The notes beneath the pieces were generated by a model. It made no database searches and was not told the DNA's origin. It saw only the letters and a list, made by a program, of their open reading frames with translations. From a virus (lineage: Duplodnaviria > Heunggongvirae > Uroviricota > Caudoviricetes), in the IMG/VR virus record IMGVR_UViG_2541047854_000004: a DNA stretch of 35,094 bases. The stretch is one strand, 5' to 3'. A program made the position numbers and the translations under genes. Positions 3,716 through 16,633 of the stretch are shown piece after piece. Position 1 is the first letter of the stretch, and every line of letters begins with the position of its first letter.

Positions 3716-3911
3716 GCTTCACCTCGATAGGCTTGATGGTATCGATCAGCAGTCGGCGGCGAGTATTTTCTGCAAAGTGGCGGCGTCCGGTTTCTTTGTG
3801 GTAAAACTCGTTTTTTCCGACGACCCACATCCGCTTTGTCTGGTGCAGTTTTTTTACCTGCGGACCGTCTCGGGTGATAACAATTCCTGTATGAGTTTTT
3901 ATCACGCTCAT
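3708..3911 (-). CDS. Hypothetical early protein
   Basis: 67-aa ORF; start overlaps the stop of the upstream gene and stop overlaps the next start. Confidence 0.45.
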   Translation of the reverse strand: MSVIKTHTGIVITRDGPQVKKLHQTKRMWVVGKNEFYHKETGRRHFAENTRRRLLIDTIKPIEVKHV

Positions 3912-4270
3912 TTTTTATTCTTCGGTGCTTTCGGCATTACTGCCCAGTGAGTGATATTGACGTTTTCAAGGTCCCCGACCTGAAATGTCCACAGCCATTC
4001 TCCGGTTTCTTTTTGTCCCCAGGTGTACCAGAGAGAACGCCAGCCAATTAGCCAGCCTTCTCCGTTAGCATCAAATAACAGAACACTTTCATTTGCTGGC
4101 GGCAGTTCAGCTGACACTGGTATTATTTTGTTTTCCAGTGCCGCACATTTAGCTTCAAGCGCATCGAATTTACGTACCAGGTACTCAGCATTTGTTTCAT
4201 TCACTTTCAGATCTCGTGGTACACATTTCCCGCGAAGAAACCCTTCCATTTCGAAAACATTCATGCGCAT
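3908..4270 (-). CDS. Hypothetical early protein, possibly DUF551-like
   Basis: 120-aa ORF; Trp-rich C-terminal half (GWLIGWRSLWYTWGQKETGEWLW...THWAVMPKAP). Domain call tentative. Confidence 0.5.
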   Translation of the reverse strand: MRMNVFEMEGFLRGKCVPRDLKVNETNAEYLVRKFDALEAKCAALENKIIPVSAELPPANESVLLFDANGEGWLIGWRSLWYTWGQKETGEWLWTFQVGDLENVNITHWAVMPKAPKNKK

Positions 4271-7210: not shown

Positions 7211-7837
7211 CTAGAGTTCGTATTGAACTCCTTTGACTACACCAATGATGAGGCAATTACCATTGATCGGGATGTTGGGGTACCGGGGATTTAATGGCAC
7301 TAAAAACTTTTGAGGGCCATCGATAACTAATTTTTTTACTGTGGCTTCGTTTGTTCCATCAAGTCTAGCGATGACTATTTTTCCATGCCGGGGTTCTGCA
7401 TCAGGATCTACAATCACTGTTGCGCCTTCTGGTATTGTTGGGAGGCCGTTAGGGTTAGTCATGGAGTCGCCTTTAACCTCCAATGCAAATGAGTTATCAC
7501 CAATCTTTAATGATGTATCTACCCACTTGTCTACTTCACTAAACACTTCTGCTGTCCTGCACTCAGTAAACTGCCCAGCCTGAACCCACGAGATTACAGG
7601 AACTCTGCGCATGTTTGTGACGAGTTTGCCTTCAAACTCCGCACCATAAAGAATGTAATCTATTGACGTATTGAAGAACTTCGCTAATTTTGAAAGTGCT
7701 TCCCCACCAGGGACATTGATGTCTTTCTCCCAGTACCCCACAGCAACGTCACTTACTCCACAAAATTTACCCAATTCTTTCTGGGACGTTCTGGTAACTC
7801 TTCTCAGAGCTTTTATACGCTGACCAACCGTTTCCAT
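7211..7837 (-). CDS. cI: CI-like prophage repressor (N-terminal HTH, C-terminal S24 LexA-type autopeptidase)
   Basis: N-terminal HTH (QKELGKFCGVSDVAVGYWE); C-terminal domain with the Ser nucleophile in GDSM and a downstream Lys (KGDSMTNPNG ... VKKLV); divergent from cro. Confidence 0.9.
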   Translation of the reverse strand: METVGQRIKALRRVTRTSQKELGKFCGVSDVAVGYWEKDINVPGGEALSKLAKFFNTSIDYILYGAEFEGKLVTNMRRVPVISWVQAGQFTECRTAEVFSEVDKWVDTSLKIGDNSFALEVKGDSMTNPNGLPTIPEGATVIVDPDAEPRHGKIVIARLDGTNEATVKKLVIDGPQKFLVPLNPRYPNIPINGNCLIIGVVKGVQYEL

Positions 7838-7934
7838 AGGAGCACCATTTCTTTAATTACTAAGTAATCTTAGTTTTTATTGACCTAAGATAGATTGATA
7901 ATTAACATCTAATAAAACTTAGTTTGGAGGGCAT
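7838..7934. promoter_or_regulatory. Immunity switch region (oR-like) between cI and cro
   Basis: Perfect 13-bp palindrome ATTACTAAGTAAT (7856-7868); two CTTAGTTT copies (7869-7876, 7918-7925); candidate rightward promoter -35 TTGACC (7880-7885), 17-bp spacer, -10 TAACAT (7903-7908); GGAGG RBS before the cro ATG. Confidence 0.5.
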
Positions 7935-8135
7935 ATGACGACTGACGATATCGAAAGCTACTTCGGCAGCATTGAGAAAGTTGCTGCTTTTTTCGGCATA
8001 ACAACTGAAGCCGTTTATCAGTGGCGAAACCGTCCTGGCCAGTTAATTCCAAAAGGACGTGCAGCAGAGGCTGCATATAGAACTTGCGGACGGTTGCCAT
8101 TTAAACCTGAGCTTTATGAAAAATCTAATGGATAA
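7935..8135 (+). CDS. cro: Cro-like small HTH regulator
   Basis: 66-aa ORF divergent from cI; HTH-like segment VAAFFGITTEAVYQWRN; GGAGG RBS. Confidence 0.75.
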   Translation: MTTDDIESYFGSIEKVAAFFGITTEAVYQWRNRPGQLIPKGRAAEAAYRTCGRLPFKPELYEKSNG

Positions 8136-9092: not shown

Positions 9093-9124
9093 GGGACGAT
9101 CATGAGCAAACCAGTAATGATTGA
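8933..9124 (+). CDS. Small phage protein, paralogue of the 1765-2043 product (DUF4222-like)
   Basis: TTG start with AAGGAGA RBS 7 nt upstream; product ...[35 protein letters not shown]... shares a motif with the 1765-2043 protein; stop overlaps the next ATG. Confidence 0.55.
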
Positions 9125-9959
9125 TTCTGATAATTCTGGGCGTTATATTGTTCTGGCAGCGGCAAAATCCGTTGCCGGGATTGGCGTCCTGAAATTGATT
9201 ACTGAGCATAACCGCGCTCATGCGGTTTTTTCGTGTCATGAGCATTGCTACGCCCAAATTATGGTGGGGCGTACAGGGCCGACTTCGGTCGGGCCGGGTT
9301 CGGTAGTCTCCGGTAACGCCAACCCTGTACGTCTCACCACCTCTGTGATTGGCGTCCCATGTGGTGAGTTTTCTAAAAAACTGACTACCGGGGCTGTCAC
9401 TATGACTACTCTCCCAACCCTCTCTCAACCTGAAATTGCCATCGTTGATGGTCAGGCTGTTACATCTTCTTTGGCTGTTGCTGACTTCTTCTCTAAACGT
9501 CATGACGATGTTCTGAAAAAGATTCGCATTTTGGATTGTTCTCCAGAGTTTTGTGCCCGCAATTTTGCGGAGACATCAATTTTGGTACGCCAGCCCAACG
9601 GCGGTACTCGCAAACTACCTTGCTATCAAATAACCCGCGATGGCTTTGCGTTTCTTGCTATGGGTTTCACGGGTAAACGTGCTGCCCAGTTCAAAGAGGC
9701 ATACATCAATGCCTTTAACCAGATGGAACAGGCGCTGATCGGAAAGGTTGATACTTCATGTGTCGCGCACAATGCCCACGTTGTTTACCTCTACATGGCT
9801 GAAATTCACCGCGTTTGGTTAGAACAACTTTATCCGATGCTGGTTTCAGTTCAGTCTCCGCTGGCTTCATCGCTCTACGACTACATCAACGATGGTGTAT
9901 TCGTTGCCGGGCTGGTGGACTCGGAACTGAACGAAAAGCATAAGGAGGTGCGTAAGTGA
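9102..9959 (+). CDS. Rha / ORF6N-type phage regulatory protein (antirepressor-like)
   Basis: C-terminal ~185 aa carry the Rha-like motif (IVDGQAVTSSLAVADFFSKRHDDVLKKIRIL...YQITRDGFAFLAMGF). The first ~100 codons (9102-9401) are of doubtful coding quality; an alternative start is the ATG at 9402. Confidence 0.5.
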   Translation: MSKPVMIDSDNSGRYIVLAAAKSVAGIGVLKLITEHNRAHAVFSCHEHCYAQIMVGRTGPTSVGPGSVVSGNANPVRLTTSVIGVPCGEFSKKLTTGAVTMTTLPTLSQPEIAIVDGQAVTSSLAVADFFSKRHDDVLKKIRILDCSPEFCARNFAETSILVRQPNGGTRKLPCYQITRDGFAFLAMGFTGKRAAQFKEAYINAFNQMEQALIGKVDTSCVAHNAHVVYLYMAEIHRVWLEQLYPMLVSVQSPLASSLYDYINDGVFVAGLVDSELNEKHKEVRK

Positions 9960-10897
9960 GCACCAAATTAACCGGCTATGTATGGGATGGTTGCGCAGCG
10001 TCAGGCATGAAATTATCCAGTGTGGCAATTATGGCCCGTCTGGCTGATTTCAGTAATGACGAGGGTGTGTGCTGGCCATCAATTGAAACCATTGCCCGCC
10101 AGATTGGCGCGGGGATGAGTACCGTCAGAACGGCTATCGCACGGCTGGAAGCAGAAGGCTGGTTAACGCGTAAGGCGCGTCGCCAGGGTAACCGCAATGC
10201 GTCGAATGTTTATCAGCTTAACGTTGCGAAGCTTCAGGCTGCGGCATTTTCTCAACTGTCAGATTCTGACCCGTCAAAATCTGACGCATCAAAATCTGAC
10301 CCGTCAAAATTTGATGCGTCGAAATCTGGCAAAAAAGCGTGTTTTCACCCGTCAGAATCTGGCGGGGATCCGTCAGTAAAATCAAAACATGATCCGTCAG
10401 ATAAAAAACCTTCTCGTCCGGACGCTTTGCAACCGGACACGCAGACGGCTGAACAGGATTTTTTAACTCGCCATCCTGATGCGGTTGTATTCAGCCCTAA
10501 AAAGCGCCAGTGGGGAACGCAGGATGATTTGACCTGCGCACAGTGGCTCTGGAAAAAAATCATCGCCCTGTACGAGCAGGCCGCCGAATGTGACGGCGAG
10601 GTGGTTCGTCCCAAAGAACCGAACTGGACAGCATGGGCAAACGAAATTCGCCTGATGTGTGTGCAGGATGGTCGTACTCACAAACAAATCTGCGAGATGT
10701 ACAGCCGCGTCAGCCGTGATCCGTTCTGGTGCCGTAACGTGCTCAGCCCGTCGAAGTTGCGGGAAAAATGGGATGAGCTTTCCCTGCGCTTATCGCCGTC
10801 CGTCAGCACGCACACAGAAAAACGTGAAGACCCGTACTTCAAAGCCAGTTACGACAACGTGGACTACAGCCAGATCCCGGAAGGATTCAGGGGGTGA
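9956..10897 (+). CDS. Replication initiator (N-terminal winged-HTH; internal origin iterons)
   Basis: GTG start with AAGGAGGTG RBS; N-terminal HTH (PSIETIARQIGAGMSTVRTAIARLEAEGWL); iteron array inside the linker-coding region, as in lambda O. Confidence 0.7.
   Translation: MSTKLTGYVWDGCAASGMKLSSVAIMARLADFSNDEGVCWPSIETIARQIGAGMSTVRTAIARLEAEGWLTRKARRQGNRNASNVYQLNVAKLQAAAFSQLSDSDPSKSDASKSDPSKFDASKSGKKACFHPSESGGDPSVKSKHDPSDKKPSRPDALQPDTQTAEQDFLTRHPDAVVFSPKKRQWGTQDDLTCAQWLWKKIIALYEQAAECDGEVVRPKEPNWTAWANEIRLMCVQDGRTHKQICEMYSRVSRDPFWCRNVLSPSKLREKWDELSLRLSPSVSTHTEKREDPYFKASYDNVDYSQIPEGFRG
10265..10400. repeat. Iteron array, putative phage origin of replication
   Basis: 15-bp units TCTGACCCGTCAAAA / TCTGACGCATCAAAA / TCTGACCCGTCAAAA / TTTGATGCGTCGAAA (10265-10324); further CCGTCAG cores at 10349, 10370 and 10394; then an A-rich stretch. 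Encodes the SDPSK/SDASK peptide repeats. Confidence 0.6.
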
Positions 10898-11388
10898 TCA
10901 TGAGTCTTTTGAATGAAGTTCAGAAATTCATTGAAGCCCATCCGGGCTGTACTTCCGGAGACATTGCGGATGCTTTTGCAGGTTACTCACGGCAGCGCGT
11001 ACTGCAGTCAGCAAGCAAGTTACGTCAGAGTGGGCGTGTGGCTCACCGTTGTGAAGGGAAAACACGCAGACATTTCCCACACCAGGCTGAGATATCGCAG
11101 GAGGAGAAACTGCAACCTGTTCTTGAAACCATACCTGTGAGCAATTTCTATGTCGGCACTAACGACCCCTGGGTGATTTTGTGCCTGACCCGTCATGCTG
11201 AAGAACTGGAGTCCAGGGGCTTATACCGTCGTGCTGCAACGGTGTGGATGGCGGCATTCCGTGAAAGCCACTCCCAGCCAGAACGAAACAATTTTCTGGC
11301 GCGTCGTGAGCAGTGCTTACAGAAAAGCAGCAAGCGCGCAGCATCGGGTGAAGAGTGGTATCTGTCAGGGAATTACGTGGGGGCTTAA
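10894..11388 (+). CDS. PerC/ANR-like transcriptional regulator with N-terminal winged-helix extension
   Basis: C-terminal motif LESRGLYRRAATVWMAAFRESHSQPERNNFLARREQCL resembles the PerC/Pch family signature (from memory). Start is GTG 10894 (overlapping the upstream stop) or ATG 10900. Confidence 0.5.
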   Translation: MIMSLLNEVQKFIEAHPGCTSGDIADAFAGYSRQRVLQSASKLRQSGRVAHRCEGKTRRHFPHQAEISQEEKLQPVLETIPVSNFYVGTNDPWVILCLTRHAEELESRGLYRRAATVWMAAFRESHSQPERNNFLARREQCLQKSSKRAASGEEWYLSGNYVGA

Positions 11389-15942: not shown

Positions 15943-16018
15943 GGCCCTTTAGCTCAGTGGTGAGAGCGAGCGACTCATAATCGCCAGGTCGCTGGTTCAA
16001 ATCCAGCAAGGGCCACCA
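15943..16018 (+). tRNA. tRNA with CAU anticodon (Met, or Ile if lysidine-modified)
   Basis: 7-bp acceptor stem GGCCCTT/AAGGGCC, D-arm AGCTCAGTGG, anticodon loop CTCATAA, T-loop GGTTCAAATCC, encoded CCA. Position matches the ileZ-argN-argO trio of Stx-type lambdoid phages (from memory). Confidence 0.85.
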
Positions 16019-16025
16019 TCACATA

Positions 16026-16099
16026 CCGCCATTAGCTCATCAGGAAAGAGCGCCAGCCTTCGAAGCTGGTTGCGCGGAGTTCGGGTCCCCGAAGGCGGT
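16026..16099 (+). tRNA. tRNA-Arg(UCG)-like, possibly degenerate
   Basis: Anticodon loop CTTCGAA, but the acceptor stem has an A-A mismatch, the T-loop is TTCGGGT (non-canonical position 58) and no CCA is encoded. Confidence 0.55.
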
Positions 16100-16115
16100 T
16101 CATTATCTGTATCCT

Positions 16116-16192
16116 GCGTTGTTAGCTCAGCCGGACAGAGCAATTGCCTTCTAAGCAATCGGTCACTGGTTCGAATCCAGTACAACGCGCCA
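16116..16192 (+). tRNA. tRNA-Arg(UCU)
   Basis: Acceptor stem GCGTTGT/ACAACGC, anticodon loop CTTCTAA, T-loop GGTTCGAATCC, discriminator G and encoded CCA. Confidence 0.85.
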
Positions 16193-16232: not shown

Positions 16233-16432
16233 AAATGTCTCACAATTCAGACGGTTGACAGTTGTCTGTTTTGCGGGGAGTTTGTTAAAAGAAACTGGCA
16301 TGGTGAATCCCCCTGTGCGGAGGGGCAATCAGCGAGTAGGTATATGGGATAATCGCGGATTCAGGTGCTGGTACTGAATTCACCGGGAGGCACCCGGCAC
16401 CATGCAGTTGACTGAAACCATGTATACTCTCA

Positions 16433-16462
16433 GGCCCCACGCACATGTGTTGGGGCCTTTTT
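16433..16462 (+). terminator. Intrinsic terminator upstream of the lysis cassette
   Basis: Stem GGCCCCA/TGGGGCC, 11-nt loop, then T5; a second hairpin preceded by A8 (16470-16496) follows immediately. Confidence 0.55.
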
Positions 16463-16633
16463 ACATGCAAAAAAAAGCCCGCATATGGATACGGGCGGCA
16501 AGGAACAAAAAACGTGAAGTGATCTATTCAGCCAGTGGATAATACCCTGACGTTACCATATTGCGCAATCGCGCATTCTTTCTTTTTCGCTCCCCTTATA
16601 ACTACGCCATCCGTTCGCTGCGGAGGTGAGGCT

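Follow-up and report, generated by a model that had tools for sequence, protein, structure and literature searches.

The tandem repeats inside the replication initiator gene described here very probably form a replication origin in which the 13-bp units are the binding sites of the initiator, judging from sequence comparisons. The window, by which is meant the whole 35,094-nucleotide stretch of DNA that was analysed, is an Escherichia coli lambdoid prophage, and the best explanation as a whole, which is considered probable, is that of the origin of a lambdoid prophage of the SfII/SfIV/SfV and CPS-53 yfdO type, situated inside the linker-coding part of its own initiator gene. A lambda-type origin inside an O-like gene, with an exchanged DNA-binding domain (HTH_36), short iterons phased at 15 bp, a GATC-bearing A-rich element and no P gene, is supported by the anatomy of the gene, its homologies, the covariation of the repeats with the DNA-binding domain and the gene content of the prophage, and from these we infer initiator binding, unwinding and the route of helicase loading. 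Apart from the missing P gene and the DnaT-like tail of the initiator, the arrangement is ordinary for lambda-like phages. This type of system is already known, and the particular origin appears to be undescribed in the searchable literature, where no prior description was found for an SfV/SfII/SfIV-type origin, yfdO, PF13730 with iterons, or the repeat sequences; the 2002 SfV genome paper might mention repeats.

The replication module is very common: of 5426 complete E. coli genomes, 1576 contain the initiator gene at ≥80% coverage, many chromosomes having it with 100% identity, and it also occurs in SfII and SfIV, two serotype-converting Shigella phages. To the counterparts in these two and in several Escherichia phages its identity is 97-98%. 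SfII and SfIV were isolated as phages (PMC3851460), even though the prophage with this module has no helicase or loader gene. Records of SfII/SfIV/SfV-type phages label the gene ‘replication protein O’ or ‘primosomal protein’. In a prophage whose copy of the initiator gene is 100% identical, PGAP annotates, in order, integrase, excisionase, early-left genes, LexA-family repressor, Cro, YmfL, DUF4222, Rha and the initiator (as an HTH protein), followed by a PerC-family protein, a Dam-type methylase, RusA, KilA-N, DUF968, Q, tRNAs and lysis genes, after which come the head and tail genes of HK97 type. A LexA-family repressor gene (7211-7837, minus strand) and a cro-like gene (7935-8135) flank a candidate promoter, from which rightward transcription would cross the initiator gene, as in lambda:

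7880-7908, plus strand, candidate pR-type early promoter, TTGACC-17-TAACAT, with 9 of 12 consensus matches (a weak, pattern-only assignment).

The initiator gene and the parts of its protein are as follows:

9956-10897, plus strand, replication initiator gene, O-like, 313 aa, enclosing the array; matches PHROG 391 ‘replication initiation O-like’ over its full length (1.3e-134).
9956-10255, plus strand, N-terminal winged-helix domain (aa 1-100), the presumed reader of the iterons; Pfam HTH_36 at residues 23-70 (4e-11).
10448-10795, plus strand, C-terminal domain (approximately aa 165-280), homologous to the C-terminal domain of lambda O.
10868-10894, plus strand, C-terminal tail SQIPEGFRG (aa 305-313), a DnaT-like short motif with 8 of 9 residues identical to the end of DnaT.

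In the AF2 model, residues 1-100 form a confident winged helix and residues from about 165 to 280 a confident helical domain, the tail is disordered, and residues 102-164, which are encoded by the iterons and the GATC-bearing element, are disordered with pLDDT below 50; the iteron repeats themselves encode approximately residues 102-136. The initial annotation had called the gene a replication initiator, which is borne out by the PHROG 391 match (at 1e-134) together with the HTH_36 winged helix at residues 23-70, and had placed the repeats in its linker-coding part, which agrees with the position of the disordered residues between the two confident domains. The best Foldseek matches of the N-domain were MarR/ArsR-type winged helices, several of them DNA-bound; winged-helix matches also dominated the search with the full-length model, and a PDB sequence search gave MarR-type matches to the N-domain only. 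The C-domain is 36% identical to that of lambda O over 149 aa (BLASTP, E 3e-25) and also matches phi80 gp15 (BLASTP, E 4e-25). No N-terminal similarity to lambda O was found by BLASTP, the window protein having HTH_36 only and lambda O having PF04492 (Phage_rep_O), and Pfam gave no Rep_3 family match for the initiator. Membership of the phi80 gp15 family, suspected from a homologue named ‘Replication protein 15’, was rejected, as the C-domain alone is held in common.

A 15-bp tandem array was located by Tandem Repeats Finder at 10265-10328, with 4.3 copies, 81% matches and the consensus TCTGACCCGTCAAAA, and an alternative 30-bp super-unit scored better (88% matches); the units were also found to be mutual inverted repeats in a repeat search. 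The conserved unit is a 13-bp imperfect palindrome, GTCAAAATCTGAC, of the form GTCA-N5-TGAC, of which six copies lie in 10258-10363:

10258-10270, plus strand, iteron 1, GTCAGATTCTGAC, with 2 mismatches on the plus strand and 1 on the minus strand; forms an inverted-repeat pair.
10273-10285, plus strand, iteron 2, GTCAAAATCTGAC, the consensus, with 0 mismatches.
10288-10300, plus strand, iteron 3, ATCAAAATCTGAC, with 1 mismatch.
10303-10315, plus strand, iteron 4, GTCAAAATTTGAT, with 2 mismatches.
10318-10330, plus strand, iteron 5, GTCGAAATCTGGC, with 2 mismatches.
10351-10363, plus strand, iteron 6, GTCAGAATCTGGC, with 2 mismatches; includes the first of three CCGTCAG cores.

Iterons 1 to 5 are spaced at 15 bp and iteron 6 is displaced 33 bp from iteron 5; iteron 6 is 100% conserved in phiNP and is also found in Pantoea and Providencia relatives. 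At two or fewer mismatches the 13-mer starts at 10258, 10273, 10288, 10303, 10318 and 10351, making six sites within 106 bp, and a single further site occurs in the whole 35-kb window; at three or fewer mismatches to GTCAAAATCTGAC there are 29 matches against 10.6 expected, a number reached in 0 of 100 shuffles. A lambda-type origin calls for at least four tandem dyad-symmetric repeats inside the initiator ORF, and six 13-bp palindromes are present here. Four 15-bp units at 10265-10324 had been described initially; the array is real and non-random, but it starts one unit earlier, at 10258. Three additional CCGTCAG cores had also been reported and were located at 10349-10355, 10370-10376 and 10394-10400, but the last two belong to a separate element consisting of two copies of GATCCGTCAG. 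The A-rich tract that was noted with them corresponds to the run GATAAAAAAC at 10400-10409, and the reported peptide repeats arise from the array being in frame in the ORF 9956-10897, which gives SDPSK/SDASK/SDPSK/FDASK.

The 13-mer GTCA-N5-TGAC was taken as the unit because it fits the conservation pattern, the two bases between successive 13-mers being the variable part when units are compared across relatives. The unit TGAC-NN-GTCA was tried and rejected: its central two bases are the variable ones, its half-sites would be too close together for a winged-helix dimer, and its 17 matches against 14 expected in the window amount to no overall enrichment. A search for DnaA boxes near the array found none between 8745 and 12718, and an Rfam search of 9956-10897 gave no match.

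Adjoining the iterons is an element of different composition:

10367-10410, plus strand, GATC-bearing A-rich element, GATCCGTCAG-N14-GATCCGTCAG-ATAAAAAACC, with two Dam sites 24 bp apart and approximately 64% A+T.

There are two exact copies of GATCCGTCAG, at 10367 and 10391, and the GC minimum of the initiator gene (0.375) falls at 10380-10419. The top strand of 10367-10410 is A-rich, and its A+T content of approximately 64% is much weaker than that of the lambda A/T-rich tract. The arrangement GATCCGTCAG-N(10-14)-GATCC(G/A)TCAG plus A-rich sequence recurs in every HTH_36 clade, also where the iterons are quite unlike, and a third GATC is often present in these relatives; mEp460-type initiators have three copies of ACAGAGAATACA in place of the GATC element. 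A Dam-family methylase is encoded by the phage itself, two genes downstream of the initiator. GATC sites occur in or near the unwinding region of both P1 oriR and oriC. Because the element does not covary with the recognition helix, it is read as an unwinding and entry region with Dam sites and not as an iteron, and 10367-10410 is therefore put forward as a candidate DNA-unwinding and helicase-entry region.

Related initiators differ in the domains that they have in common with the window protein. That of phiNP has the same N-domain and the same iterons joined to a different C-domain, Phg_2220_C, and over 10258-10404 its array has near 100% identity, compared with 83.5% for the whole gene match. 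That of mEp460 has the same C-domain from approximately residue 150 onward with a different N-domain, and at the corresponding position it carries an array of 5.4 copies with a period of 23 bp and units of the GGTCAAAATGAC type. A survey was made of 80 genome loci encoding the C-domain, with Tandem Repeats Finder run on each initiator gene; in nearly all of them the linker contained a tandem array, whose unit varies with the type of N-domain. The array periods were 12, 15, 21, 22, 23 and 24 bp, with 15-bp units TCAAAATCTGA, TCAAnnnTTGA and TTCAGATTCTGAA, longer units GGTCAAAATGAC (23 bp), CCGCAGAATCGCGG (22 bp), GGTGAAnnAATTCACC (21-24 bp) and CCGAAAACGGGAAAA (21 bp), and a shortest unit, CCGCGCATAAC, of 12 bp. 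Differing recognition helices among the HTH_36 clades go with differing 15-bp palindromic units (TCAAAATCTGA, TCAAAATCTGTC, TTCAGATTCTGAA and TCAAnnnTTGA). For lambda-O-type N-domains the scan returned the 21-bp CCGAAAACGGGAAAA, the sequence that GenBank annotates as gp15 binding sites in phi80, and the procedure therefore recovers known iterons, serving as a positive control. Co-inheritance of the repeats with the N-domain type, as expected of a lambda-type origin, was found in the phiNP and mEp460 swaps and in the 80-locus survey alike.

The nucleotide identity of the window gene was also compared with seven diverged relatives. It was 73-91% in the iteron block, a range inflated somewhat by repeats aligning easily with each other, 73-93% in the GATC/A-rich block, which is not repetitive in the iteron sense, 64-78% in the N-domain, and 56-69% in the C-domain (six relatives sharing that C-domain). 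The DNA of the linker is thus more conserved than that of the folded domains, though it encodes a disordered segment.

No P, DnaC or DnaB homologue was found by tblastn in the whole window, and the PGAP-annotated prophage with the 100% identical initiator gene contains no P, DnaC or DnaB homologue, in agreement with the earlier remark that no such loader follows the initiator. The initiator tail, SQIPEGFRG, has 8 of 9 residues in common with SQIPPGFRG, the C-terminal end of E. coli DnaT, and among 13 DnaT orthologues (71-87% identity) the pattern S.PD..IP.GFRG never varies, though the segment around it is otherwise variable. Among relatives of the initiator, Trp-containing tails (WNxxEAWExxL, TDWI..., GWRGML) were followed by a downstream P-family gene (Pfam PF06992) at 36 of 36 loci, these loci being related and the count not one of independent events. 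At 20 loci with GFR-type tails, 17 had no partner, two had a DnaC-like AAA+ gene (Pfam IstB) directly downstream, and one had a weak distant P match. Seven more loci in the set combine other tails with a P gene, and about a dozen have a long C-terminal extension without one; in this locus set, a GFR-type tail and a P gene are mutually exclusive. The phiNP initiator carries a GFR-type tail also, on its Phg_2220_C-type C-domain. From the other direction, 80 viral contigs were chosen for a DnaC-like gene, and in all 78 with a usable upstream ORF, related loci that again are not independent events, this ORF ends in RD.N..S.PD..[IV]P.GF[RK]G. The tail-bearing ORFs before phage DnaC-like genes belong to several different initiator families.

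These patterns suggest that the tail is a portable motif that accompanies DnaC, of host or phage, and substitutes for P. Since it excludes P and often precedes a phage DnaC-like gene, direct use of the host DnaB-DnaC is suggested. That the tail recruits DnaC/DnaB is given slightly less than an even chance. A wider proposal, more tentative still, is that ...S.PD..IP.GFRG is a portable short linear motif recruiting the DnaC/DnaB loading machinery, common to host DnaT and at least five architecturally different phage initiators, whose carriers have no P-type loader and would load host DnaB via host DnaC, or via phage DnaC where one is encoded. How DnaT recruits DnaB/DnaC is stated to be unknown in a 2026 structural paper (PMC13377028). 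If the proposal is true, the phage modules are a pointer to the contact through which DnaB-DnaC passes from DnaT to DNA, and the dnaT-dnaC operon is perhaps descended from a phage ‘initiator plus DnaC’ cassette.

The repeats could instead be a low-complexity SDxSK peptide linker that changes by slippage, the DNA itself being functionless. Such a linker would fit a period of 15 bp, which is five codons and a multiple of three in this clade, the predicted disorder of the encoded segment, and a copy number that steps by 5 aa among homologues, the family including proteins of 303, 313, 318 and 323 aa. It is nevertheless highly improbable. Sister arrays at the corresponding linker position have periods of 21, 22 and 23 bp and no peptide repeat, and because periods that are not multiples of three (for example 22 and 23 bp) permit none, selection acts on the DNA. 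The units are moreover palindromic and covary with the DNA-binding domain, synonymous positions are preserved (the Ser codon is TCT or TCA throughout, and the AAATC core never changes), and the linker DNA is conserved above the folded domains. A function in the DNA could also be that of an operator or titration site, with the initiator sites serving chiefly to autoregulate, to control copy number or to exclude related phages, and with replication really starting elsewhere. This is unlikely, although the adjoining A-rich tract is only moderately A+T-rich, and one published account describes regulatory and exclusion effects of cloned iterons of plasmids and lambda (PMC3349717). The repeat search and the 13-mer scan revealed no other repeat cluster or candidate origin around the replication module, the equivalent architecture in lambda and phi80 is an origin (PMC7466680), and a regulatory role would add to origin function, not exclude it.

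It would likewise be surprising if the origin were correctly placed but the helicase were loaded by the protein encoded downstream, acting as an analogue of P, with the tail not being a loading signal. This gene (10894-11388) was initially described as PerC-like, which its PerC-family match upholds; it encodes 164 aa with a winged helix and a PerC domain, and it is translationally coupled to the initiator, occupying exactly the place of P and overlapping the initiator stop codon by the same 4 nt. Many GFRG-tailed initiators are followed by small winged-helix proteins (PerC-like, DUF977, DUF1627). Its protein, however, resembles neither P nor DnaC nor any other loader, the PerC family carries the annotation of transcriptional activator, and phiNP, L021 and L023 have a methyltransferase gene directly after the GFR-tailed initiator and no such small protein. 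The PerC-like protein is unlikely to be an obligatory loader because it is absent from several GFR-tailed modules.

If the array is the origin, with the 13-mers as initiator sites, rightward early transcription after induction would produce the 313-aa initiator, and dimers of its N-terminal winged helix would bind the six 13-bp imperfect palindromes at 10258-10363. The 15-bp phasing would place alternate sites 30 bp, or approximately three turns, apart on one face of the helix, and the resulting nucleoprotein complex could destabilise the adjoining A-rich, GATC-bearing segment at 10367-10410. The lambda-O-like C-domain and the SQIPEGFRG tail would then bring the host DnaB-DnaC, either directly or via PriA-type primosome components. 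The proposed loading involves no phage P protein because the phage encodes no loader or helicase.

The defined iterons and the probable unwinding element provide a testable minimal-replicon fragment, and the iterons allow prediction of replication-type incompatibility among co-resident prophages. The winged-helix/iteron pairs with changed specificity form a natural series. The correlation involving the DnaT-like tail is the part that may merit experiments, as a handle on the recruitment of DnaB-DnaC by DnaT.

Among known systems, the closest layout is that of ori-lambda and the origins of phi80 (gene 15), 933W and P27, which likewise lie mid-gene, in the linker between the DNA-binding N-domain and the C-domain; for lambda and Stx phages the layout described is one of iterons with an AT-rich tract midway along gene O (PMC7466680). 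In GenBank, the entries for lambda and phi80 each mark four binding sites of O or gp15 within the initiator gene, at the equivalent place, and these, with the homologous C-domain, support the likeness to ori-lambda in gene O proposed in the initial annotation. As in other lambda-type origins, tandem dyad-symmetric repeats, here the presumed initiator sites, have an A-rich stretch next to them toward the C-terminal side, and the position of the initiator gene, in the rightward early operon beyond the immunity region, is that seen in lambda. The window differs from lambda in the N-domain, which is HTH_36 and not Phage_rep_O (PF04492), in having six 13-bp sites at 15-bp phasing where lambda has four 18-bp sites at approximately 20-24 bp, in the weaker A-rich tract with its two conserved GATC motifs, and in the absence of a P gene downstream. 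Unlike its P-partnered relatives, every one of which has a Trp-containing tail, the window protein has a DnaT-like tail.

Iteron plasmid origins, with winged-helix Rep proteins such as RepA, pi and TrfA, resemble the window in combining a winged-helix initiator with direct repeats beside an A/T-rich unwinding element, though binding and unwinding are predictions in the present case. The iterons of plasmids are found outside the rep gene, have usual lengths of 17-22 bp and a phasing of approximately two helical turns, and are accompanied by DnaA boxes. In contrast to Rep_3-type plasmid origins, the repeats of the window are intragenic and phased at 15 bp, with no nearby DnaA box and no Rep_3 match to the initiator; the 15-bp phasing also differs from the spacing of approximately 20-24 bp in lambda, phi80 and plasmid iterons. 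In Cellvibrionales and Oceanospirillales, DopC is described as an O-like protein that combines HTH_36 at the N-terminus with the DnaT motif at the C-terminus; its gene is chromosomal and domesticated, has the P-like DopE as partner, and was reported to be without iteron-like sequences (PMC5509034). The window protein, unlike DopC, is phage-borne, has iterons and has no P partner. With E. coli DnaT (primosomal protein i) it has in common the extreme C-terminal motif ...IPxGFRG, and the phage initiators with the longer tail RD.N..S.PD..IP.GFRG resemble the dnaT-dnaC operon in preceding a DnaC-like gene.

The PLSDB 'plasmid' records NZ_CP081716.1 (comparison locus L087), CP085522.1, NZ_CP081704.1 and NZ_CP081794.1 are circular and 37-44 kb in size. 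NZ_CP081716.1, the one record inspected, is given no replicon type and shares its early region with the window prophage. It appears to be the genome of a phage of this type, circular and assembled as an extrachromosomal element. Upstream of the initiator gene, matches to the isrK Hfq-binding RNA and to the C4 antisense RNA (P1/P7 immI type) exceeded the Rfam gathering score, and both lie within the 5' part of the Ash/Rha-family ORF (9102-9959). The real start of Rha may be further downstream than annotated, and an antisense-RNA-controlled, antirepressor-type module may be located directly upstream of the initiator. The stretch between the Q antiterminator gene and the lysis cassette contains three tRNA genes, together with a match to the STnc100 sRNA.

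RNA features of the window
9156-9232, isrK match (Rfam)
9257-9344, C4 RNA match (Rfam)
15943-16189, tRNA genes
16269-16468, STnc100 match

DnaA-box-like 9-mers (TTATCCACA, up to one mismatch) were approximately two-fold enriched across the whole window (17 vs 7.8 expected; 0 of 100 shuffled windows contained 17 or more), and the whole-window scan placed none near the iteron array. The sequence formed where two iterons meet, TGACCCGTCA, has an exact copy within the PerC-like gene (window 11186-11195). This copy is probably due to chance, because no full 13-mer is present there.

Initiators of the mEp460 type have a different N-domain (MSLLF...PLVIN type), for which there was no Pfam match, and 23-bp iterons of the GGTCAAAATGAC type. 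They carry a second array, ACAGAGAATACA, repeated three to five times at the position occupied by the GATC element in the HTH_36 clades, and were found in phage mEp460 (L001; arrays at 3837-3962 and 3976-4013), L022, L026-L031 and L041. A third class of initiators, from Providencia, Proteus, Morganella, Edwardsiella, Sodalis and Acerihabitans, has a C-terminal extension of 40-50 residues ending in ...WQQAAEQAAREV or ...IWKQATEMSQEVQ, and no P (lambda-type helicase loader) or DnaC gene downstream of the initiator at the third-class loci (L012, L016, L017, L019, L029, L039-L041, L044, L045, L054, L056, L060, L065, L068, L072).

Initiator genes encoding the DnaT-like GFRG tail are often followed, at the P position, by a gene for a small PerC-like, DUF977 or DUF1627 protein that has a winged helix at its N-terminus. 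This gene overlaps the initiator stop codon by 4 nt.

DnaT-like tail, host dnaT and small winged-helix genes at the P position
Window 10868-10894, DnaT C-terminal motif at the initiator end
L083 2979-3518, dnaT (host comparison gene)
Window 10894-11388, P-position gene
L022 4309-4716, P-position gene
L037 3960-4622, P-position gene

Among relatives, the DnaT-like tail and an adjacent P gene did not co-occur. In the set of viral contigs L088-L167, the ORF directly 5' of the phage DnaC-like gene was usable in 78 cases and ended in the DnaT-like tail in all 78, and these tail-bearing ORFs belong to several unrelated initiator families. The phage order, a tailed ORF followed by a DnaC-like gene, mirrors the host dnaT-dnaC operon.
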